A stretch of DNA of 64,000 nt, taken from positions 30,264-94,263 of the forward strand of contig JAKPMO010000007.1 in the NCBI GenBank assembly GCA_029548865.1, read 5' to 3'. Shown here piece after piece: positions 3,233-29,669 of the stretch; within the stretch, counting starts at the first letter, position 1, and the number at the start of each line of letters is the position of its first letter. The position numbers were made by a program, and so were the translations under genes. The DNA is from Caldisericota bacterium. Lineage in GTDB: Bacteria; Caldisericota; Caldisericia; JAAYUI01. The notes beneath the pieces are model-generated. The model was not told where the DNA came from and did no database searches. It saw nothing but the letters and a program-made list of their open reading frames with translations.

Positions 3233-4339
3233 ATGAATGTAATTCTCAATCTAAGGAAGTTTGTTCTGGTTCTAGTTGTCTTTGCAATAATTGTCACCCC
3301 ATATTCCAGCCCCAGTTTTGGCATTCAGAAAATGATCTGGCCACAGGACCCTTTTACGATAATCGCATATGAGTATAGGTCATTTTCTGGTGGTTCATTC
3401 TGGTCTTTCAAAAAACCCACGCCAATGCTTTCGTATGAAAAAGGCAAACTCACATTTTATGAATTTGAAATTGTAGAAGACGAGACTGGGAAACACTATT
3501 CACCCGTTCTGGATGAATATGGATCACCGGTCAAGGTTGATCCGGCAGACAAGGACATTGTGAAAAAAGCTGAAAAGATAATTACCAGTAGGCGGCTTTT
3601 TGGCAAGCTTGATGGCCCACAGGGCCGGATTGCTTTGGGAATGTTCTTCCAAGAGGATGACAACTATTATAAATGGAAATACTGCATTTTTGGAAAGGAC
3701 ATCAATAGAAGTCAATATATCTCGGGAACAGACAAGATATATCCAGTCGGTTCAATAAGCTACCTTGATGGGGATTACAACTTTGAGGTGCAGGCATATC
3801 ATGGGTATGCATACCAGGTAGAACGAAGGGAAGCACTCAATCCTGAATACTATGACCGTTACGAAATTCCAGGCCTTGTGGATTTTGGTGAGGCATCATA
3901 TATAAATCGTCAAAGTGGTGCCGGATATCTCTGGCTCAGTGCAAAAGATCCAAAAGTAGTAATTAATACTGTTGAGCATTCCTACACTAATTTTGCACTT
4001 GTGTTGTCTGAAAACCAAATACCGTTCGTTGCTTTAAGCTTTCTTTCCGATGTGCTCTTTGCGCCAATGACGGGTGATGGTGAAACATATACAATCCAAA
4101 GGCTATATAATATCAAAACCACGGAGGTTGAGCTGGTAAAGCTGACATTGACCAAGGACAGTAAAAAAGCACTTATTGATGGCAAAGAGGTTGAGTTATC
4201 CGAACCTCCATTCATGACAGACACTGGGCTTTTTGTCCCACTTCTTGATGTTTGCAAGCTCCTCAAGGCCAACTGCCACTACAGAAAAACTGACTATTCG
4301 GCCATTGTCGCCAGATTTTTCGCTCCAATGAATGAATGA
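3233..4339 (+). CDS. secreted protein, paralog 2 of the tandem family
   Basis: Start refined to ATG 3233 (GGAGGG 6 nt upstream; MNVILNLRKFVLVLVVFAII signal peptide). Motifs: FYEFEI, DKIYPVGSISYLDGDYNFEVQAYHGYAYQVERREALNPE, CKLLKANCHYRKTDYSAIVARFFAPMNE. Confidence 0.55.
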   Translation: MNVILNLRKFVLVLVVFAIIVTPYSSPSFGIQKMIWPQDPFTIIAYEYRSFSGGSFWSFKKPTPMLSYEKGKLTFYEFEIVEDETGKHYSPVLDEYGSPVKVDPADKDIVKKAEKIITSRRLFGKLDGPQGRIALGMFFQEDDNYYKWKYCIFGKDINRSQYISGTDKIYPVGSISYLDGDYNFEVQAYHGYAYQVERREALNPEYYDRYEIPGLVDFGEASYINRQSGAGYLWLSAKDPKVVINTVEHSYTNFALVLSENQIPFVALSFLSDVLFAPMTGDGETYTIQRLYNIKTTEVELVKLTLTKDSKKALIDGKEVELSEPPFMTDTGLFVPLLDVCKLLKANCHYRKTDYSAIVARFFAPMNE

Positions 4340-4403
4340 CAACAAGCAGATGAAAAACAAGGAAATGAGTCTTTTTTAAATACACGAAAAGAGAGGATGA
4401 ACC

Positions 4404-5534
4404 ATGAAGAAAACAATAATATTTTTGCTTGCATCAATAATCCTGGTGTCCCCATTGGGGCATGCAAAGTCCCTGAACAAAGAGGCTGCCCCTTCGCAGT
4501 TCCCGGACTTCAAAATAGTAGTAGACAAAGACTACTCATTTGAAGATCTGGATAAAAAATATACCATAATGGAGCACACAAAAGAGGAAGGCCTGGTCTT
4601 CTACAGGTTGGAGAAAAAGCAAACTGCAAAATCATTTGCCTACTTGCCAGTTCTGGACAAAAACAACAACCCTGTCAAGCTGAGTCCAAAAGACCCTGAT
4701 TATTGTTATGAAGTTGCTAAAGCTCTCAATGTTTCAATTGCAGCAGTTCAGCTGGAGACTGAGTCTGACATACTAGCGGTATCTATTGTTTTTTACAATT
4801 ATGGTGATTATGAATTTTACACAGCATTGACACAAAGTTCATTTTCTAAACATGGTACCGGTTCATCGGGGTTTGTCAGCTTTGAAAATATGCACAAGTA
4901 CAAAATGTTGTCAAAAGGTAGCGCCTACATAATAGACACCAACCTCAACATCGAGTATCTGAGACTGGAAGACAAAGAATACAAGATAACCCATGAAACA
5001 CTCAACCCGGATCTTGAAGAGAACAACATTATCTATGCCATAGATAATGTTGTTACTCACACTTATTCCAGTTATGACAATGTAGGAGGATACATCCATC
5101 TCCAACTGGACAACCCGATATATACCATAGCTGGCAAACCCATCAAATATTACCCGCCACCCACACTTAAAGACGGTCAGTTGATGGTTGGGCTGGAAAT
5201 TGTCAATAAAATGGGTGCATTTTACGAGAGAATAAAAGATACAAATGGATACAGGATTGTCAAGGCTGATAAAGCAATCCATGGGCCAATAACGGTAACC
5301 GACATCACCATTACAATCGGTGAGAAAAAGGCCATTGTTGATGGCCAGGAGTATGAACTCAGTGCCATACCGTACTATTATACTGTAAAACCTTACAATG
5401 ATAATCCAATGATACCCCTGCGTGATTTTTGCTATCTCCTTAACAATGAGCTTCACTGGAGACCAATTGACAATTCTGCCCTTATTGATAGATTCCAACC
5501 GATAGATCCGAGGGAGCCATTGCCAAAGAAATGA
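4404..5534 (+). CDS. secreted protein, paralog 3 of the tandem family and the most divergent member
   Basis: Signal peptide MKKTIIFLLASIILVSPLGHA, with AGAGAGGATGA upstream. C-terminal 'VDGQEYELSAIPYYYTVKPYNDNPMIPLRDFCYLLNNELHW' fits the stalk-domain pattern. It lacks the ARFFAPM tail. Confidence 0.5.
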   Translation: MKKTIIFLLASIILVSPLGHAKSLNKEAAPSQFPDFKIVVDKDYSFEDLDKKYTIMEHTKEEGLVFYRLEKKQTAKSFAYLPVLDKNNNPVKLSPKDPDYCYEVAKALNVSIAAVQLETESDILAVSIVFYNYGDYEFYTALTQSSFSKHGTGSSGFVSFENMHKYKMLSKGSAYIIDTNLNIEYLRLEDKEYKITHETLNPDLEENNIIYAIDNVVTHTYSSYDNVGGYIHLQLDNPIYTIAGKPIKYYPPPTLKDGQLMVGLEIVNKMGAFYERIKDTNGYRIVKADKAIHGPITVTDITITIGEKKAIVDGQEYELSAIPYYYTVKPYNDNPMIPLRDFCYLLNNELHWRPIDNSALIDRFQPIDPREPLPKK

Positions 5535-5772
5535 TGATATAAAATCATGCTTGCCAGCTCCACCACCACAGCTGGCCTCTTCTCTGGTGACATAACTTTT
5601 TCTACTTCTGGAACTGGTAAAACTTACGATAGGTCGGATACTGGATATGCATCAATGTATCGAGATAATCTTCACTTGATAGCTTTTGATAATAACAATG
5701 ATGGTATTGTAGATTACTATGAGTGGGATCTATCAGGGCTTCAAAATTGGCCATAAATATAAGGAGGAAAAT

Positions 5773-20967: not shown

Positions 20968-22092
20968 ATGGTAAAAATCACAAAGGCACAAATCATTCGC
21001 TACATGCTCTATGCAGGAGCACTTTCAATCATTGCTGTTCTCTTTGTAATGCAGTTTGCAACCGGGCTTGATTTTGGATCGGCTTTAAAATCCCTTGGCA
21101 AAACAAACCTGTGGTTCATACTTGCCGCCATTGCAATTAACGTCTCTGCGTACTTTACAGAGGCCCTACAACTTTACCTGCTTGCCAAAACGCTTGGGAA
21201 AAAACCGAGCTTTTGGGGAATGATGTTGATATTTTTTATCGGCAACTTCTTTTCGAATGTCACACCTGCAACATCTGGCGGAAAACCTTTCCAGATATAC
21301 TTTTTACTCGATCAGGGTTTCTCTATTGCAGAAGGGACCGTAATGGTTATTGCCAGAGGAATAATATCTGTATCAACAAGAATATTTCTTGTCCTTGCAG
21401 TAGCTGTGGCAGTTTTATTTGGGTTTGATAGCAATCTGTCAAGTTTTATCGGGTGGACATTCGTTTTAACCCTGATAATGATGATAGCGCTGATCGCAAT
21501 GGGCATTGCCGCACTCCTCAACCCAAAGTTTTTTTCCTTCTTAATTAATATCGCCTCGCGAATTAGGCTAGTGAGAAAACTCGTCAAAGCGCCCACGGTT
21601 GATGAATGTATGGCAAAAGGCTACAGGTTCCTCGACTCGGTGAAAAATTCCTCAAAGATGATTTTCGGGGGGAACAAAGTTTATCTTACCCTGACAATTT
21701 TTACGAGCCTTGTCTCATGGTTCCTTCTGAAAACTGTTCCATATTTTGTTTTGCTTTCTTTTGGAGAGAGCATTCCGCTGATGATTGTTGTCGCAACATC
21801 AATAATATCGCAGCTGCTTACAATCTGGGTGCCAACACCAGGTGCCTCTGGCGGTGTAGAAATAGGCCTTGGAACTCTTTTCAGGGGGCTTGTTGCAAAC
21901 CCAGGAAATCTTTCACCGTTCGTGCTCGTTTACAGACTAATAGACTACCATCTAAACATGCTTGTCGGCTTGCCGATCGCCTTCTGGGCACTTGGCAAAA
22001 AAGTGAAACCAGTTATTTGTACACCTCAAAATGAGAATGAAGTCGAAACATCTGCCGGAGTTCCGGAATGTGAGGGAGGGACCCTGAAATGA
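20968..22092 (+). CDS. UPF0104 / LPG-synthase-TM family membrane protein, tandem paralog
   Basis: Colinear with the upstream paralog: 'FFSNVTPATSGGKPFQIYF', 'TPGASGGVEIGL'. Confidence 0.65.
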   Translation: MVKITKAQIIRYMLYAGALSIIAVLFVMQFATGLDFGSALKSLGKTNLWFILAAIAINVSAYFTEALQLYLLAKTLGKKPSFWGMMLIFFIGNFFSNVTPATSGGKPFQIYFLLDQGFSIAEGTVMVIARGIISVSTRIFLVLAVAVAVLFGFDSNLSSFIGWTFVLTLIMMIALIAMGIAALLNPKFFSFLINIASRIRLVRKLVKAPTVDECMAKGYRFLDSVKNSSKMIFGGNKVYLTLTIFTSLVSWFLLKTVPYFVLLSFGESIPLMIVVATSIISQLLTIWVPTPGASGGVEIGLGTLFRGLVANPGNLSPFVLVYRLIDYHLNMLVGLPIAFWALGKKVKPVICTPQNENEVETSAGVPECEGGTLK

Positions 22093-22920: not shown

Positions 22921-24570
22921 ATGAAGAAACTGACAGCTTTTTTGTTGTGTGCTCTGGTAATAATGCCGTGTTTTCAGACAGCCCTCTCTCAGGATGACAA
23001 ACTGATCGAGCTTTCTCCAAAAGAAATCAATATTGTCGCGAAGCAGGGTGAAACGGCAACAGCCACAATGGGCATCTTCAACAGGGGTTCCAGCTCCCTC
23101 CTGTTTTCGCTCTCAAAGTCCTACAGCAAGGCAAAAACACAGCCTCTGGCATCACCAGATGGAAATATGCTGGTGTATCCAAGTTTCCTGGATTTCGGCA
23201 CTGTACCCTCCAAAGGCGAGGTTTCGCAAACTGTTACATGTACAGCACCAACGGAACAATATCTCCAGGTCACGGCCTCAAGCGATGTTGAATGGATAAA
23301 ATGCCTCATACGCAATATAGACAAAACGGTTGTTTCTGTAACAGTGACCGTCAAGCTTGACGGAATGGTCACAGGACAGCTTTACAGGGGCAATGTCATT
23401 CTGGCTTCAAATGCCGGCCTTGTTCAGGTACCAGTCATTCTTCAGGTGGCGACCACAACAGTCAAGGACTGGCTTTCATACAACCCCACAAACGGCATCG
23501 TCTCTCCTGGCAACAACACTGGGATACAGATAAAAGCATCAGCAAAAGGCCTCCCGCCAGGCGACCAGTTCGCAACAATCATCGTTACATCCAATGATGA
23601 AAAACAGCCGGTCATTGAAGTTCCAGTCAAACTGACTGTAATCGCCGGTTCTCCTGCGCCATCCACGCCAGAAATATTCGTCGGCTATCCAGGAGATGGC
23701 AGGGCCCACCTTTTCTGGAAACCAATCGCATCACCAAACATTGTTGGTTACTACATATTCAGGTCAAACAACCCGGGGATTTATACGGATGTTGCAATAA
23801 CCGATTTCTATGTCACCGGCACACAATACACCGACCCAAACGTCACCAATGGCTTGATCTATTACTACATAATCAAGTCAGTCGACCAGAACGGCAACCT
23901 CTCTGATGCCTCAAACGAGATAATGGTCATGCCAAACCCGATAAAACCTGTCGTCAACCTCAAGGACGGCTTGGTCACAAGGACGCAGGTACTTGATGTT
24001 ACAGGTGTTGCCGAACCAAACTCGCAGATCATCGTAAATGGGGAACTTGCAATAATCGACCCGGATGGCAAATTCCAGGCCAAAACGGTGCTAAGGGTTG
24101 GTTCCAATACAATCACCGTCATAGTATTTGATCCGGGTGGCAACCAGACAAAATTCACATACAAGGTCAGCTTCTCCGCCTACACTACCGTGATCTTGAT
24201 GGTTGGCTCCAAAAATGCCTGGGTAAACGGTGAAGAGAAAAAGAATGCCCTGCCTCAGGCGCCAGTCATCATAAGCGGCAAGACATTCGTTCCTTTCCGC
24301 TTCCTTGGCGAAAGCCTGGGGGCAGACATCGGCTGGGACGACCAGACCAAGAAAGTCACATACACGCTTGAGGGCAAGAAAGTCGAGATGTGGATTGGCA
24401 AGACAACCGCATCCGTCGACGGAAAACCGGTTTCAGTCAACCCTCCGCCACAAGTCATTGGTGGCTCAACATTCGTCCCGACAAGGTTCATAACAGAGGC
24501 GCTTGGCGCATCCATTGAATGGAAAGCGGCAACCAAAACAGTAGTGATAACATATCCGGCAAAACCATGA
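22921..24570 (+). CDS. secreted surface protein: beta-rich region, Fn3-like module and two C-terminal copper-amine-oxidase N-terminal (stalk) domains
   Basis: Signal peptide MKKLTAFLLCALVIMPCFQTALSQ. 'GKTFVPFRFLGESLGADIGWDDQTKKVT' and 'GGSTFVPTRFITEALGASIEWKAATKTV' are canonical stalk repeats. Confidence 0.6.
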   Translation: MKKLTAFLLCALVIMPCFQTALSQDDKLIELSPKEINIVAKQGETATATMGIFNRGSSSLLFSLSKSYSKAKTQPLASPDGNMLVYPSFLDFGTVPSKGEVSQTVTCTAPTEQYLQVTASSDVEWIKCLIRNIDKTVVSVTVTVKLDGMVTGQLYRGNVILASNAGLVQVPVILQVATTTVKDWLSYNPTNGIVSPGNNTGIQIKASAKGLPPGDQFATIIVTSNDEKQPVIEVPVKLTVIAGSPAPSTPEIFVGYPGDGRAHLFWKPIASPNIVGYYIFRSNNPGIYTDVAITDFYVTGTQYTDPNVTNGLIYYYIIKSVDQNGNLSDASNEIMVMPNPIKPVVNLKDGLVTRTQVLDVTGVAEPNSQIIVNGELAIIDPDGKFQAKTVLRVGSNTITVIVFDPGGNQTKFTYKVSFSAYTTVILMVGSKNAWVNGEEKKNALPQAPVIISGKTFVPFRFLGESLGADIGWDDQTKKVTYTLEGKKVEMWIGKTTASVDGKPVSVNPPPQVIGGSTFVPTRFITEALGASIEWKAATKTVVITYPAKP

Positions 24571-25041: not shown

Positions 25042-26376
25042 TCAGATCGAATATCTCATGCTCATATCCGCATAGAATTTAAGATATCCTGCGATTTGCT
25101 CCGGTTTCTTAAAACAAGCAGGTTCGCCTAGGTCTCCCCTTTCAGAAAAGCTCTGGGCCACACATCCCCCAGCACAACTGGGGACAAGCGGACATTCAAG
25201 ATCCAGGCAACGCTTGACCTTTGAGATCCTAGCATCAATCCACATTTTTTCTTTCATGCAGTCAATAGGAGCACTGAAATTTACATTTCCTATCTCAAAG
25301 CCTTCTCTCCCAATAAATTCCCAACAAGTCCCGATTGCGCCATCGGGCGATACTGTATAAAAACCCTTCGTGCCAACACCACAAAGATTTGACAACACAA
25401 GATTTTTTATGTATTTTCTTATGTGCTTGGCTCCCCCGCAAAAACCATAAGCATTGATCAGCTCAATGATTCCGGTTATCTTTTCAAAGTAGCTATCAAT
25501 AGATAGGCATTTGCTTTTGTATCCAAGAGACTCCGGCGTCATATGGACAACAGGATATGCATAAACACGCAAATTCTCATGATTCGAAAAACCCCTTTTG
25601 TCCAAATCCATTAAAAGGCCTTTCAGTGAAAAGGCGTTCTCCAGATCAATATTTACCCTGATCTCAATATTTGGGATCTTTCTATTGATTGCTTCCCCTA
25701 TTCCATTCACAACATCTTCGTAGGATGGTTTTCCACCTACATAGAACCTTTTTGAATCATGATTCTTTTTATCCCCGTGGATTGTCACCTGTATCCTTTC
25801 CAATGGCACAGACTTCATGAATCCACCAAGCTTTTTCCTCAGCAACGACCCATTGGTGGTCATTCTCGGAGATATCTTTACTGAAGGATTTGTTTTTGAA
25901 ATTTCCTCATAAATATATCGAAAATGATCAGGAAACAAAAGAGGTTCCCCGCCATAGCAGGCCATGATAAAATGACCGATGTTAAACTTTTTCAGATGGC
26001 CCTGAATGAATCTGACCAGATTTTTTAATGTCCCTTCATCCATGATGCGATCATCTCTGGCCTCATAACAGTACGGGCAAGCAAAATTGCATGCAAAAGA
26101 TGGAGCTATCGTTATATCAAGGGTATCATTTTTCCATGTTTCTCTGGAAAATTTTTCAATCAGAAAGGATTTCTCATCAAAATTTTCGTCAACCAAAAAG
26201 AACGCATTTGACAATTCCTTGCAAGTTTTCTCTTCTTCCGGTAAGTTGCCACTGTTTATGAGACTGATCAGCCTCTTATCAATTATAATTATGGAACCGG
26301 ATATTGTAGACATCAAAACGTATTTATTTTCATCCAATTCTTTGGCAATAATAAATTTTGAAAACCTAAGACCCAT
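25042..26376 (-). CDS. radical SAM / SPASM-domain peptide-modifying enzyme (putative RiPP maturase)
   Basis: Start refined to ATG 26376 (AGAGGAG 5 nt upstream) rather than 26604. N-terminal ~95 aa look RRE/PqqD-like ('ENKYVLMSTISGSIIIIDKRLISLINSG...EEKTCKEL'). 'CNFACPYC' is a CX3CX2C motif. C-terminal SPASM 'C-x4-C-x5-C-x3-C' (CLDLECPLVPSCAGGC) plus a distal Cys. Confidence 0.8.
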   Translation of the reverse strand: MGLRFSKFIIAKELDENKYVLMSTISGSIIIIDKRLISLINSGNLPEEEKTCKELSNAFFLVDENFDEKSFLIEKFSRETWKNDTLDITIAPSFACNFACPYCYEARDDRIMDEGTLKNLVRFIQGHLKKFNIGHFIMACYGGEPLLFPDHFRYIYEEISKTNPSVKISPRMTTNGSLLRKKLGGFMKSVPLERIQVTIHGDKKNHDSKRFYVGGKPSYEDVVNGIGEAINRKIPNIEIRVNIDLENAFSLKGLLMDLDKRGFSNHENLRVYAYPVVHMTPESLGYKSKCLSIDSYFEKITGIIELINAYGFCGGAKHIRKYIKNLVLSNLCGVGTKGFYTVSPDGAIGTCWEFIGREGFEIGNVNFSAPIDCMKEKMWIDARISKVKRCLDLECPLVPSCAGGCVAQSFSERGDLGEPACFKKPEQIAGYLKFYADMSMRYSI

Positions 26377-26393
26377 AATCTCCTCTATAGACT

Positions 26394-26443
26394 CAAAAAA
26401 TATTGGGGGAGACGATTGACTATTTCTCCCCCAATATTTTTTT
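26394..26443 (-). terminator. intrinsic terminator/attenuator hairpin between the precursor-peptide ORF and the rSAM gene
   Basis: Perfect 13-bp inverted repeat ATATTGGGGGAGA / TCTCCCCCAATAT with a 12-nt loop. In transcript orientation it is flanked by an A-run and TTTTTT. It lies in the 79-nt spacer between the ORFs. Confidence 0.6.
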
Positions 26444-26455
26444 AAACACCAACCA

Positions 26456-26644
26456 TCAGACCATTGCATTATTGGTCCAGCACCTATAATTTGGGCACGA
26501 GCAGACTTCCATGGTAGCAGGATTGTAGTTTTGTTGGTCAATCCAGACAACTGACAAACCAGAAATGGGTTCCATGATTTCTGTATTAACAAGGCCACTT
26601 TCAACCGATACCTTTATCGAGTTTATATTGTGCTGATATGGCAT
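26456..26644 (-). CDS. candidate RiPP precursor peptide (62 aa) with a C-terminal Cys/Trp-containing core
   Basis: Strong SD (GAAAGGAGGTGGAGGG ATG). Sits 79 nt upstream of the rSAM-SPASM gene on the same strand. C-terminus '...NPATMEVCSCPNYRCWTNNAMV' has three Cys and one Trp. Confidence 0.45.
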   Translation of the reverse strand: MPYQHNINSIKVSVESGLVNTEIMEPISGLSVVWIDQQNYNPATMEVCSCPNYRCWTNNAMV

Positions 26645-26927
26645 CCCTCCACCTCCTTTCTGCTCAATTGAGTAGCATCGTATTATTTGACATCAAGAAT
26701 TGATCGTTAAATCAAATTATCCATTATGATAATTATTTGAATGGTTATTTTTAACCTTTTTAATATTCCAATTTTTTTATAATCAGTTTTTTTGAAAATA
26801 CCCAAAAAAGTTGATCAGGAAACTATTGCATCAGTATCATACCGAATACCTGACTTTTTACTATAAATCGTAGTATTAGAAATCATGGCGATTTTATCAA
26901 TAAAAAGTCAGGAGGAATTTTTGTAGA

Positions 26928-27710
26928 ATGAAACAAAAAAGGTATGCACTCATCCGTCATCTCTCCCAAATTGGCTTTGTACTTCTGATTCTGTATTACA
27001 CTCTGGGGCGATTTATTTTTCCTGGGGTCAGGGGAATCGAACTACACGGAATCTGTCCCTTTGGTGGGGTAGAGACGTTGCCAACATTTCTTGCTTCTGG
27101 GGGTCTAAAGTTTGTCCATGAAACAGGCCTGTCAAACTTTGCCATGCTGGCGGCACTTCTGCTTGCCGTGCTGGCGTTTGGCGGGGCGTTCTGTGGCTGG
27201 GTGTGCCCTGTGGGTTCGGTCACGGAATGGCTTTTCATGCTAAGAAGGGTATTCTGGAAAAAGAGAATAATTGTTCCAGAAAAATTGCACAATGTTCTGG
27301 TCTGGTTCAGGTACGTCGTCCTTGCCGCCATCCTCTACATGACCTTCTCAATTGGCTTTCTGGTGTTCGGCACAGTCGACCCGTTCCTGAATCTTTTCTC
27401 GTTTGGCAGGGTGTTTGCCGTTGGCCTTGTCGTCCTGGTGCTCATCCTGATCGGCTCGATGTTTATCGAAAGGTTCTTCTGCAGATACCTTTGCCCGCTT
27501 GGCGCAATCATTCTCCCGTTTGCAAAGCTCTCGGCAACAGGCGTTGTGCACTCAAATGAAGATTGCACGTCATGCAAGGGGTGCGAAGAAGTCTGCCCAA
27601 AACAGATACCAATCAGCAGGCAGACAAAAATAGACAGGGGCCAGTGCATCAGCTGCATGAAATGCGTTGAAGAATGCCCGACGGCCCTCAGCTTCAAGAT
27701 TGGATGGTGA
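26928..27710 (+). CDS. NapH/MauN-like membrane polyferredoxin (4Fe-4S binding)
   Basis: Motifs 'CPFGG', 'CGWVCPVGS' and 'CRYLCPLGA' in TM loops. C-terminal 'CTSCKGCEEVCP...CISCMKCVEECP' is a 2x[4Fe-4S] ferredoxin. Confidence 0.75.
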   Translation: MKQKRYALIRHLSQIGFVLLILYYTLGRFIFPGVRGIELHGICPFGGVETLPTFLASGGLKFVHETGLSNFAMLAALLLAVLAFGGAFCGWVCPVGSVTEWLFMLRRVFWKKRIIVPEKLHNVLVWFRYVVLAAILYMTFSIGFLVFGTVDPFLNLFSFGRVFAVGLVVLVLILIGSMFIERFFCRYLCPLGAIILPFAKLSATGVVHSNEDCTSCKGCEEVCPKQIPISRQTKIDRGQCISCMKCVEECPTALSFKIGW

Positions 27711-27991
27711 AAAAAATGAAAATAAAGCCTTATATCGCAGGAATCCTTTTTGTTGTTCTTTTCATCGGATTGATCCAGCTGGCACAAGGTGTTGGTTTCT
27801 GGAGCTCCAGGGAACATGGCGAAGGAAGAGGAAGGCCGCCAGAAGGTTTCCAGAATGGCCAGGAATTCCAGATGCCGCCTGGTGAAGAAGGTGAAGAGAA
27901 CGAGGAAGGCGAAGGCAATCAGTATAGATACAGGATCCGCAACGAGGAGGGGGAAACAGAGGAAGGCGAGGGGCTCGAAGGACAGCCGTGA
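27707..27991 (+). CDS. small membrane-anchored protein with a Glu/Gly-rich acidic tail
   Basis: GTG/ATG start overlapping the napH-like stop. TM 'IAGILFVVLFIGLIQLA', then 'GEEGEENEEGEGNQYRYRIRNEEGETEEGEG'. Low-complexity, so the call is uncertain. Confidence 0.4.
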   Translation: MKKMKIKPYIAGILFVVLFIGLIQLAQGVGFWSSREHGEGRGRPPEGFQNGQEFQMPPGEEGEENEEGEGNQYRYRIRNEEGETEEGEGLEGQP

Positions 27992-28086: not shown

Positions 28087-28530
28087 TCAGCCGTTTTTCT
28101 CTATGGCCTCTAGCGTCACCAAAAGACTCTCTATGAGTTCAATAATTATGGTGTACATGACAAATAGCCCATATGATAAGGCAAAAATGGTCCATGCCAT
28201 TTCCATGAAAGTATGGCATTTAATACCATGGAACAGATAGGCTAGAGTGAAATCAATTGATAATACAACAAATCCGCAAACAAGCCTTATAAACCAGCTC
28301 CTGGAATAAAAAGATGCTGGATTTTTTTCAATCTTTTTTTTGAAAGTTCGTTTGTACAAATAATAAACTGGGCGGCTGAGCAAAATGGCAAGCAGTACAA
28401 TGCAAGGAAATTCTCCCGTTCTAATATAAGCATATACGTCATCGTTGCTAATAGTAAAATAACACAATCGCAAGAATACTATTAATGCAATCAGCAATAA
28501 AATGCTTAGAAGAAGGATTTTTTTCCACAT
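28087..28530 (-). CDS. small 4-TM membrane protein, tandem paralog 1 of 3
   Basis: Shares 'YSRSWFIRLVCGFVVLSIDF' with the downstream paralogs. AT-rich. Confidence 0.5.
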   Translation of the reverse strand: MWKKILLLSILLLIALIVFLRLCYFTISNDDVYAYIRTGEFPCIVLLAILLSRPVYYLYKRTFKKKIEKNPASFYSRSWFIRLVCGFVVLSIDFTLAYLFHGIKCHTFMEMAWTIFALSYGLFVMYTIIIELIESLLVTLEAIEKNG

Positions 28531-28609: not shown

Positions 28610-29023
28610 TTAATTATTCTTTTTCATCTCCAAATAAATCAACTCAAGAACTCCAACAAAGAAAATAAACGATCCGTATGATGCCGCAAAAGCAATCAAG
28701 GTTGTATCGATACTTGTTTGCTCAAAGCCATCAAATAACGGATAGATCTGGAACAGATCAAACGCAATGGTAATAAATCCACAAACGAGTCTAATAAACC
28801 ATCTTCTGGAATAAAGCGGCACGTGGCCTTGTTCGATTTTTACATTAAAAATTAGCCTATACAAATAGTAGATGGTAAGATACACCGTAATCAAAAGGAC
28901 GACAGAAAGGATATCCTTAAGGCTTATGTGGGATGCCGGTTTGAAGATAAAAAAATAAGCAATTACAAGTGCTAGTGTCAAAAATATCGAGAAAACATAT
29001 TGAAAGATTTTTTTCTTCCCCAT
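28610..29023 (-). CDS. small 4-TM membrane protein, tandem paralog 2 of 3
   Basis: 'EQGHVPLYSRRWFIRLVCGFITIAFDLF' is nearly identical to paralog 3. Confidence 0.5.
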   Translation of the reverse strand: MGKKKIFQYVFSIFLTLALVIAYFFIFKPASHISLKDILSVVLLITVYLTIYYLYRLIFNVKIEQGHVPLYSRRWFIRLVCGFITIAFDLFQIYPLFDGFEQTSIDTTLIAFAASYGSFIFFVGVLELIYLEMKKNN

Positions 29024-29121: not shown

Positions 29122-29532
29122 TTATTTCTCCCAATAAACCAACTCAAAAGCTCCAACATATAGAATAAACAAAATATAAATTGTGACAAAAACAATCAAA
29201 GTCCTTTCGATATACAAGTGCTTAAAACCATTAAATAGTGGATGGATAAAAAATAAATCAAACGCAATAGTAATAAACCCGCAAACGAGCTTGATAAACC
29301 ATCTTCTGGAATAAAATGGCACGTGGCCTTGTTCATCTTTTATCTTGAAAACTACTCTGTATAAACAGTAAATTGGGAAATAAATCATCATGGCAATAGT
29401 AATAAAAAAGACATTTTTTACGCAAACTTGGAGAAACATGAGGCAAAGTGCGAAAAGGAAATACCTAATAAGATAAAGTATTAATATCGAGATTACAATA
29501 AAAGCACTTATAACAAGGATTTTCTTCCACAT
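29122..29532 (-). CDS. small 4-TM membrane protein, tandem paralog 3 of 3
   Basis: Start refined to MWKKILVIS (29532), matching paralog 1's N-terminus. 'EQGHVPFYSRRWFIKLVCGFITIAFDLF'. Confidence 0.5.
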   Translation of the reverse strand: MWKKILVISAFIVISILILYLIRYFLFALCLMFLQVCVKNVFFITIAMMIYFPIYCLYRVVFKIKDEQGHVPFYSRRWFIKLVCGFITIAFDLFFIHPLFNGFKHLYIERTLIVFVTIYILFILYVGAFELVYWEK

Positions 29533-29669
29533 GTTTTTATTATAAACAAATATACATTTTTTAAAAGCGCGTATCACATCACTGATATCAATAATTCTCT
29601 TGAATTTTCATGCTGTTTACCCAAGAAATTGGTAATCTTTGATTGTATGAAATCTACAAATATTTTTTC

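Follow-up and report, generated by a model that had tools for sequence, protein, structure and literature searches.

Among peptide-modifying radical SAM systems, the closest described relatives of the locus analysed here are those whose substrates are rich in Cys. One of them is SCIFF/thermocellin (CteA and CteB, TIGR03974). SCIFF cassettes are two-gene units without an adjacent protease or exporter, and Clostridia carry the SCIFF gene as one highly conserved copy; we know of no function assigned to the system. Likewise, to our knowledge the chemistry of CefB, the maturase of the "Cys-every-fifth" peptide CefA, has not been characterised experimentally. Long and conserved leaders are known from the NHLP and Nif11 precursors, which resemble a domain of ordinary proteins and often occur without an adjacent protease. 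The thioether chemistry of CteB, PapB, QhpD and NxxcB has been reviewed (PMC10114670), and PapB and NxxcB are described as radical SAM/SPASM enzymes whose products are non-alpha thioethers formed from Cys (PMC10114670; PMC9413430).

In the 64-kb window, meaning the whole stretch of DNA that was analysed, a gene for a short Cys-rich peptide is followed by a gene for a radical SAM/SPASM enzyme. We read the two genes, with a probability of roughly 0.75, as a minimal two-gene RiPP cassette of an uncultured Caldisericales bacterium, in which Cys-derived thioether cross-links are the likely modification.

The two genes and their pairing across loci

The precursor ORF is located at 26456-26644 (-) and encodes 62 amino acids (MPYQHNINSIKVSVESGLVNTEIMEPISGLSVVWIDQQNYNPATMEVCSCPNYRCWTNNAMV). 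Both genes lie on the minus strand, which the earlier note had left unstated. As the earlier note had described, it carries a near-consensus Shine-Dalgarno sequence, AAGGAGGTGGAGGG, at 26645-26658 (-). On direct sequence reading this site was graded as strong, and GGAGG counterparts are found 5' of the peptide genes in the homologous loci L001, L002, L006 and L007. An AT-rich stretch further upstream (26682..26754, -) contains two candidate sigma-70-like promoters, TTAAAA-17-TATCAT and TTAACG-17-AATAAT, which match the consensus weakly (9 of 12 positions each) and for which conservation was insufficient for a call. The stop codon of the precursor is separated by exactly 79 nt (26377-26455) from the ATG of the complete 444-aa enzyme gene (25042-26376, -), the same spacing and length that had been claimed. 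This gene was assigned to a radical SAM/SPASM peptide maturase on the basis of its ORF, profile matches and fold, and its ATG is preceded by GAGGAG. A 520-aa ORF starting from an upstream TTG was rejected, since it runs into the peptide gene and the homologs do not share its N-terminus.

RNA folding revealed that the intergenic stretch holds a terminator-like hairpin at 26395..26443 (-), consisting of an 18-bp stem, a 12-nt loop and a following U6 tail. The 96-nt intergenic stretch folds at -31.6 kcal/mol with a z of -4.6, and none of 200 shuffles was as good. A consensus terminator scan did not pick up the hairpin because its loop is longer than 8 nt. At the equivalent position, stem-loops with unrelated sequence are present in L002, L006 and L007; the hairpin is absent in L003, where the gap between the genes is 14 nt, and its presence is ambiguous in L004 and L001. 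We infer that it is a partial terminator. When the peptide gene was compared with that of the 78%-identical L001 cassette, pN was 0.12 and pS 0.86 (saturated), and by this measure the peptide ORF is under purifying selection. Together with the z of the hairpin, these values indicate that the cassette is more than a chance arrangement.

The earlier note had proposed to check whether peptide and enzyme co-occur, and they were paired in all eight subfamily enzymes with a readable context (the window, L001, L002, L003, L004/5, L006, L007-10 and L090), each having one to four homologous peptide ORFs of 62-70 aa immediately 5'. A ninth peptide, in L091, is followed by a fragment matching the enzyme N-terminus. 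On the other hand, the peptide HMM gave no match in 77 loci encoding 23-30% radical SAM relatives. Two of the outcomes that had been named in advance as speaking against a RiPP locus were enzyme homologs that neighbour sulfatases or QhpC-like partners and a small ORF that is unconserved or without a Shine-Dalgarno sequence. Instead, the enzymes of the subfamily adjoin a small peptide, and the ORF is conserved, carries its ribosome-binding site and appears to be selected. Co-location, co-inheritance, a conserved leader and a variable core, the general marks of a precursor and its maturase, were all found, and we regard the two genes as very probably a genuine pair.

No protease or exporter was found within about 6 kb of the window cassette. 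The absence had been noted before and it stood, but its description as unusual did not, the situation being ordinary for this maturase clade. In the eight loci the cassette has no conserved neighbour that encodes a protease, an exporter or an immunity function, and a secreted mature product is therefore unproven. The only other recurrent flank element was a Cu_amine_oxidN1 surface-protein domain, which is unrelated. A functional link was rejected for three kinds of neighbour in the window, a divergent 4Fe-4S gene, small membrane proteins and a dCMP deaminase, as these are not beside the cassette in other loci. Neither Rfam nor tRNA scans found anything in the window. The GC content of the cassette was lower than that of its flanks in all eight loci, which may reflect amino-acid composition and not horizontal transfer.

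Leader, core and enzyme domains

The precursors show a conserved leader joined to a variable, short, Cys-rich core (alignment A2). In the window peptide the leader comprises residues 1-47 (26504..26644, -), as delimited by alignments A1 and A2 and by the purifying selection. Its motifs are MPYxH[ND], M24-E25, V32-V33-W34-I-D36 and [FY][DN]P-x2-M45, in the family form …VVWID…FDPxTM…, and M1, M24, V32, W34, D36 and M45 are invariant in the 7-11 homologous peptides of the two alignments. A Gly-Gly cleavage motif is absent from the junction between leader and core.

The core, residues 48-62 (CSCPNYRCWTNNAMV; 26459..26503, -), is the presumed site of modification. It had been described as holding three Cys and a Trp within ten residues, and indeed C48, C50, C55 and W56 are packed into nine. 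Two kinds of core occur in the peptide family. The type A motif, C-x-CPNYRCW[TQ]N, is common to the peptides of the window, L001, L002 and L006, and the distant L090 peptide also contains YRCW[S]N, whereas type B cores follow C-x4-C-x4-C. The precursor matched nothing in Pfam and NCBIfam, and no peptide of the family matched any curated precursor model at E<=10, in agreement with the view of the earlier note that the core does not resemble known precursors.

The enzyme begins with a RiPP recognition element (RRE) domain at residues 1-80 (26137..26376, -). Its RRE-like character had been suggested from the sequence, and the fold bears this out: it is a winged helix-turn-helix with a three-stranded sheet followed by three helices, and its best fold match is TigE. 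Residues 1-90 gave no match to Pfam at E<=1, so there was no PqqD sequence-profile match, and NCBIfam likewise yielded nothing for the RRE. The predicted CX3CX2C motif for the radical-SAM [4Fe-4S] cluster is present as C96-NFA-C100-PY-C103 (26068..26091, -), and Radical_SAM PF04055 placed the enzyme in the superfamily with 49.5 bits (cutoff 29.5; E 7e-13). The SPASM domain (25114..25383, -), likewise predicted, was recognised by TIGR04085 at residues 332-418 with 44.6 bits (cutoff 27), and holds seven Cys for two auxiliary Fe-S clusters in the pattern C332-x13-G-x4-C351, C390-x4-C395-x5-C401-x3-C405 and C421. Both the CX3CX2C motif and the seven SPASM Cys are invariant in 121 enzyme homologs. 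The spacing CX4C is seen in this SPASM domain; the canonical one is CX2C. Over its full length the enzyme matched the folds of CteB, TigE, anSME and SuiB, TigE being the second-best. All curated equivalog models scored below their cutoffs, the best at 183 against 600, and these far-below-cutoff scores make the transfer of a function to the enzyme weak.

Possible maturation chemistry and role of the product

We propose that the hairpin would stop most transcripts before the enzyme gene and that the precursor transcript would as a consequence be in excess. The RRE of the enzyme would then bind the leader, probably via the invariant VVWID strand, and the core would enter the active site, where the cluster bound by C96, C100 and C103 would cleave SAM to a 5'-deoxyadenosyl radical. 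This radical would take a hydrogen off a core residue, and a core Cys thiol (C50 or C55, in C-x4-C spacing) would close a thioether ring with the help of the SPASM clusters. Candidate acceptor sites are the NYRC segment (N52-Y-R-C55), an NxxC motif resembling that of the NxxcB substrate, and WTN. The product could be a small, rigid peptide similar to the sacti- or ranthipeptides, and leader removal and export, if any, would depend on genes encoded elsewhere. By analogy with the best relatives of the enzyme in sequence and fold, which act on Cys-rich peptides, we consider the chances about even that it installs Cys-derived thioether cross-links on the core. The conserved aromatics beside the Cys could also be explained by cross-links of the C-C, C-O or C-S type to aromatic residues.

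The pair could therefore be real and its chemistry different, with C-C, C-O or C-N cross-links on aromatics or, for example, epimerisation. A three-residue cyclophane could form at W56-T57-N58 or Y53-R54-C55, or Trp and Tyr could be cross-linked as in streptide or darobactin, and the Cys would then only bind the auxiliary cluster or form disulfides. In coherence with this, the conserved Cys has aromatic neighbours in type A (YRCW) as well as in type B, where [YF]-C occurs twice; W-x-N and Y-x-C agree with the Ω-x-x pattern of cyclophanes, and there are weak matches to the DynA, YhhB, FxsB and GrrM families. TigE, which we take to be a cyclopropyl synthase, is also among the top fold matches, and fold similarity consequently does not fix the chemistry. 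However, cyclophane- and darobactin-type families reached only 41-81 bits, mostly over the radical SAM core (YhhB, FxsB and GrrM gave 58.1, 46.7 and 40.6 bits over that core only, below cutoffs of 310-445), whereas maturases of Cys-rich peptides match at full length with 118-183 bits. Moreover, the sole core residue invariant across the whole peptide family is a Cys, C55, type B cores have no Trp, and the nearest homologs are all paired with Cys-rich peptides. On balance we find such chemistry unlikely. Still less do we expect that the cassette makes a structurally new cross-linked peptide and represents a new, Caldisericota-specific RiPP class with a leader derived from an autonomous domain of ~48 residues; in that case the invariant Y-R-C-W-x-N could possibly be bridged by a thioether or a carbon-carbon bond through Trp, Tyr, Arg or Asn, in a connectivity without precedent.

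Compatible with thioether chemistry is a role of the modified peptide inside the cell, perhaps with the leader retained, for example in redox reactions, metal binding or regulation, and not as an exported antibiotic-like product; the two-gene SCIFF system would be its analogue. The lack of conserved protease, exporter and immunity genes is in line with such a role, as is the leader, which is unusually long and well conserved. In addition, a leader-like module of ~48 aa occurs twice in tandem in proteins of 228 and 400 aa with no radical SAM gene nearby. These larger non-RiPP proteins are described as bactofilin-like, and the tandem arrangement suggests that the module may be an autonomous domain. 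Against this, tandem precursor copies with diversified cores (L003 and L007), two cassettes in one genome, genomic sites that differ between loci and a patchy distribution give the picture of an accessory, bacteriocin-like trait and not of a housekeeping one, and processing genes may sit elsewhere, as for NHLP- and Nif11-type precursors. An intracellular role thus seems to us a tentative option, somewhat on the doubtful side. Very different is the view of the enzyme as a protein maturase, anaerobic sulfatase-maturing or QhpD-like, next to an incidental or spurious small ORF. It could draw on the good fold matches to anSME chains (E about 4e-14) and on weak matches to TIGR03942 (63.4 bits) and TIGR03906 (67.7 bits), but the cutoffs of these models, 349 and 453, are far away and the anSME fold alignments cover about 380 columns compared with 461-473 for CteB. 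Unlike anSMEs, the enzyme starts with an RRE, sulfatase or qhp genes are found in none of the eight loci, and the small ORF is conserved, under selection and always located beside the enzyme. This view is highly implausible, and the comparative data in effect refute it. We retain the reading of the cassette as a precursor and its peptide maturase, with thioether formation as the likely modification.

Distribution and relation to known systems

The peptide family is small. Of 1.84 billion representatives, 12 proteins matched its profile at E<=1e-3, and these include two unrelated repeat proteins and two larger proteins carrying the leader-like module. Among 5.8 billion proteins the profile found 10 clusters. 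Every named record of the family belongs to Caldisericia, a class that has received little study, or to Caldisericales. In a genome-collection scan, at least two Caldisericia genomes with the peptide were among the matches listed, and the second cassette of OY771555 was not among them; the taxonomic range may be under-sampled, as this figure rests on the matches listed. A JGI metagenome scan with the type A alignment returned 147 pattern matches, none of which was confirmed, but bacteria of this kind are present in many public metagenome assemblies, where the commonest peptide variant was found on 59 contigs. In the tree the eight subfamily enzymes form one clade, inside which those with type B cores are a subclade.

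For experiments the cassette is well suited, as it has just two genes and a core of 15 residues, and two core designs are already represented among its natural variants. Work on it could reveal what one branch does in the large, mostly uncharacterised CefB/TIGR04463/Clo7bot/geopeptide clade. That unrelated larger proteins reuse the leader-like domain is relevant to the question of where RiPP leaders come from. We found no described natural products in the literature on Caldisericota, and literature searches on the core sequence, "Cys-every-fifth", CefB, OhkG, FlmE and Caldisericota combined with RiPP or ranthipeptide gave nothing relevant. The product would be, as far as we could find, the first Caldisericota RiPP to be described. 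No long-standing question is opened by it, as many comparable unnamed radical SAM RiPP families exist.

SCIFF shares with the cassette the RRE, radical SAM and SPASM architecture of the enzyme and the Cys-rich core, and CteB is the best solved-structure match both in sequence (E 4.6e-10) and in fold (E 4e-19, over the full length). Nevertheless, the enzyme scored 62.8 bits with the SCIFF maturase model TIGR03974, whose cutoff is 425, and the precursor has no SCIFF signature. In contrast to SCIFF, the family is limited to Caldisericia and has multiplied precursors with diversified cores. Of the curated enzyme families, CefB (NF038107) gave the highest score and matched at full length with 183.1 bits, below its equivalog cutoff of 600. 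As in CefA, Cys occurs at each fifth residue in type B cores, and C50-x4-C55 of type A has the same spacing, but unlike CefA the family peptides have only two to three Cys and no long repeat. PapB/freyrasin (NF047865) matched residues 93-419 with 118.1 bits, its cutoff being 340. PapB requires C-x3-D/E in its substrate, and the type A core, having no Asp or Glu, is without these acceptor residues. The likeness to the NxxcB substrate is also incomplete, as the Asn of the NxxC motif is replaced by Ser in the L090 peptide.

Further matches were to TIGR04463 (175.2 bits, cutoff 525), geopeptide (TIGR04280, 154 bits) and Clo7bot (TIGR04334/TIGR04333, 142 bits), models whose cutoffs lie at 400-600. 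Among the 88 nearest homologs, matches at E<=1e-80 were to TIGR04463 in 33, to Clo7bot in 29, to geopeptide in 13 and to CefB in 8, and the nearest outgroup homologs, which are members of these families, have Cys-rich ORFs upstream. By these sequence relationships the enzyme is placed in the large clade of Cys-rich-peptide maturases that includes CefB, TIGR04463, Clo7bot, geopeptide and PapB. The Clo7bot-type loci among the relatives examined (such as L055, L063, L067, L068 and L074) contain several tandem short Cys-rich precursors, as do L003 and L007. The precursors of the TIGR04463, Clo7bot and geopeptide systems, to which no sequence similarity was found, are 35-50 aa long with short leaders, whereas the leader of the Caldisericia family has 47 conserved residues. 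In the occurrence of its leader-like module in larger proteins the family is comparable with NHLP and Nif11, again with no sequence relationship to those leaders. The earlier note had suggested an undescribed class. An undescribed family is what we find, and class status is not established by it, because a RiPP class is defined by chemistry. Unnamed subfamilies with precursors of their own are common in this maturase clade, and we conclude that the cassette is a new, unnamed family within a known kind of RiPP system, not demonstrably a new class.

Gene layout and pairing of the peptide with the enzyme

The window contains, on the minus strand, a 62-aa ORF (26644-26456) with AAGGAGGTGGAGGG (26645-26658) directly 5' of it, followed after a 79-nt spacer by a 444-aa ORF (26376-25042) whose start is preceded by GAGGAG. 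The earlier note had described this layout accurately in all details, but had left the strand unstated. A 520-aa version of the enzyme ORF, taken by a mechanical ORF list from an upstream TTG, was rejected; because the added N-terminal stretch runs into the peptide gene and homologs do not conserve it, the start was set at MGLRFSKF. In the public annotation, the two products carry adjacent accession numbers as a "hypothetical protein" and a "SPASM domain-containing protein".

The enzyme has few close relatives, with identities of 98%, 78%, 41%, 36%, and 36% before an abrupt fall to at most 30%; the window itself is 98% identical to the Caldisericales MAG contig JAAYUI010000021. Every relative with a readable contig has at least one homologous ORF of 62-70 aa directly upstream of the enzyme gene on the same strand: one each in loci L001, L002, L004/L005, and L006, three in L007-L010, and four in L003. 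Locus L090, reached via the peptide, has one such ORF and an enzyme of 40% identity, and the short contig L091 carries a further homologous peptide followed by a fragment matching the enzyme N-terminus. The fourth L003 gene (5349-5558), with a GTG start (VSYQHNENSIRV…CVATYCHSTYCSGNYNDMC), is uncalled in the public record; therefore, the 2.23 Mb Caldisericia chromosome OY771555 holds four tandem type B precursors here and a separate type A cassette at L006. Comparison of the window and L001 peptide genes gives a saturated pS of 0.86 and a pN of only 0.12. The small ORF is thus a real gene that travels with the enzyme, and the co-occurrence and conservation checks proposed in the earlier note both came out in its favor.

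The family is rare. A peptide profile gave 12 matches (E ≤ 1e-3) among 1.84 billion representative proteins, including two unrelated repeat proteins and two larger proteins with a leader-like module, and a word-indexed search of 5.8 billion clusters gave 10; the commonest variant occurs on 59 contigs. In 77 loci whose enzymes are more distant relatives, at 23-30% identity, the peptide HMM had no match.

Flanking genes vary from locus to locus, except in the syntenic pair L002/L006, and in an all-against-all comparison, the loci had nothing in common besides the peptide, the enzyme, and a widespread surface-protein domain. In four loci, a large secreted protein with a C-terminal Cu_amine_oxidN1 domain is encoded one to five genes from the cassette (window 22921-24570; L002 10789-13209; L003 10837-13365; L006 11012-12192), which probably means no more than that the domain is frequent among surface proteins of these genomes. 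Small membrane proteins of 147, 137, and 151 aa form a tandem set of three paralogs (window 28087-28530, 28610-29023, and 29122-29577, minus strand); they share the motif YSRRWFIRLVCGF and lie in a sharply AT-rich patch (~30% GC vs. ~47% around); one of them, scanned against Pfam, gave no meaningful match, and they are absent beside the cassette in the other loci. A 105-aa ORF (27674-27991, plus strand) with one hydrophobic segment and a Glu/Gly-rich low-complexity tail has no Pfam match and overlaps the 3' end of a divergent 4Fe-4S membrane protein gene (26928-27710). Two similar plus-strand ORFs sit in tandem just 5' of the gene for glutamate racemase: 19738-20895 matches the flippase-like Pfam domain LPG_synthase_TM, and 20968-22092 appears from its sequence to be a paralog.

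The spacer contains a hairpin (26395-26443, minus strand) with an 18-bp stem, a 12-nt loop, and a following U6. The surrounding 96 nt fold at -31.6 kcal/mol (z -4.6), and no shuffled sequence folds as well. L002, L006, and L007 also have a stem-loop at this position, with unrelated sequences; the one in L001 is weaker, and L003 has none. Many RiPP operons keep precursor transcripts above enzyme transcripts, and we infer that the hairpin is a partial intrinsic terminator with this effect. At L006 (6193-6252), the public radical SAM gene call (start 6220) begins within the hairpin; the conserved start (MRFTNY), with its own GGAGG site, lies 33 nt downstream. The L001 peptide gene has, in its 5' UTR (about 5712-5741), the inverted repeat CACCTCC-TTTGAAA-GGAGGTG. 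This repeat would base-pair with the Shine-Dalgarno sequence, a possible means of translational control; the window has nothing comparable.

The enzyme and its relatives

The radical SAM motif (C96-x3-C100-x2-C103) and the SPASM cysteines (C332, C351, C390, C395, C401, C405, and C421) claimed from the sequence were confirmed, all being invariant in 121 homologs, with matches to Pfam Radical_SAM (E 7e-13) and SPASM TIGR04085 (44.6 bits, cutoff 27). An AlphaFold2 model built from the 121 homologs (mean pLDDT 94.3) predicts residues 1-80 to be β-β-β(-β)-α-α-β-α. The best Foldseek match of the whole model was CteB (5WHY/5WGG; E 4e-19, 461-473 columns), followed by TigE, anSME, SuiB, and ChlB. The modeled N-terminal domain is a RiPP recognition element (RRE), as first suspected; since no Pfam profile detects it, the assignment is based on fold and not on sequence.

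The enzyme scored far below the cutoff of every curated family matched: CefB (183 bits, cutoff 600), TIGR04463 (175, 525), geopeptide maturase (154, 400), Clo7bot maturase (142, 600), PapB (118, 340), QhpD (68, 453), SCIFF maturase (63, 425), and anSME (63, 349). Among the nearest 88 homologs, 33 match TIGR04463, 29 Clo7bot, 13 geopeptide, and eight CefB at E ≤ 1e-80, and many are preceded by short Cys-rich ORFs in tandem, one to five in number. Among the 23-30% relatives, such ORFs were seen in L027 (4680-4835), L049 (86-513), and L055, L063, L067, L068, and L074 (about 3980-4900). In the enzyme tree, the eight subfamily enzymes form a clade against the outgroups, with the type B enzymes as a subclade inside.

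Precursor cores and proposed chemistry

No model in Pfam or NCBIfam matches the peptide. Alignments of the homologs define a conserved leader of ~47 residues, MPYxH[ND]xNSxKVxI…LVD…ME…VVWID…[FY][DN]PxTM, with M24, V32, W34, D36, and M45 invariant, followed by a short, variable core in which C55 is invariant. Type A cores (window, L001, L002, and L006) read C-x-C-P-N-Y-R-C-W-[TQ]-N, and the distant L090 peptide retains G-C-G-S-Y-R-C-W-S-N; type B cores (L003, L004, and L007) read C-x3-[YFL]-C-x2-[TG]-[YF]-C, with a Cys at every fifth residue. The proteins P0133 (228 aa) and P0134 (400 aa; L093 2375-3577) carry two tandem N-terminal copies of a ~48-residue leader-like module, so the RiPP leader appears related to an autonomous protein domain. 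The C-terminal half of P0134 has GDxYG repeats and a weak bactofilin match, and no radical SAM gene lies beside it.

We propose that the RRE would bind the leader and bring the core to the radical SAM active site, where hydrogen abstraction and attack by a core Cys thiol would form thioether rings. C50 and C55, spaced C-x4-C, are the candidate donors, and the acceptor may lie in N52-Y-R-C55, which is an NxxC motif, or in W56-T-N58. Cys-derived thioethers are what the characterised enzymes of the wider group, CteB, PapB, QhpD, and NxxcB, produce (PMC10114670). The proposal transfers function by homology at low identity, and we give RRE-guided thioether formation about even odds (0.5). The leading alternative is cross-linking of aromatic residues through C-C or C-O bonds, which the conserved Tyr, Phe, and Trp residues adjoining the cysteines favor; the family affinities of the enzyme point away from it, as does the fact that a Cys is the only invariant core residue.

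Product role and comparison with known families

Conserved genes for a protease, an exporter, or immunity are missing near the cassette in the loci compared, so the product may have an intracellular, SCIFF-like role. On the other hand, the precursors occur in tandem copies with diversified cores, one genome has two cassettes, cassette locations vary, and cassette GC is below that of the flanks in all eight loci (34-40% vs. 47-52% around the cassette in the window). These features speak against an intracellular role and fit an accessory, bacteriocin-like one.

The reading of the locus as a peptide precursor with an RRE-bearing radical SAM/SPASM maturase is thus supported; status as a new RiPP class turns on the chemistry of the product. 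Among the distant relatives, L027 has an upstream ORF with a C-x4-C-x4-C-x4-C core, and Clo7bot-type peptides are encoded in the loci from Clostridium and Paraclostridium. Other clade members, including some distant relatives with Cys-rich ORFs, also fall below every curated cutoff, so the clade commonly holds unnamed subfamilies, each with precursors of its own, and this tempers the novelty. The cassette represents a precursor/maturase family that had no name before, belonging to a known kind, the radical SAM/SPASM-RRE RiPPs with Cys-rich cores. Coming from an unexplored phylum, it offers a small and tractable target, but it is one among many uncharacterised families of its kind.
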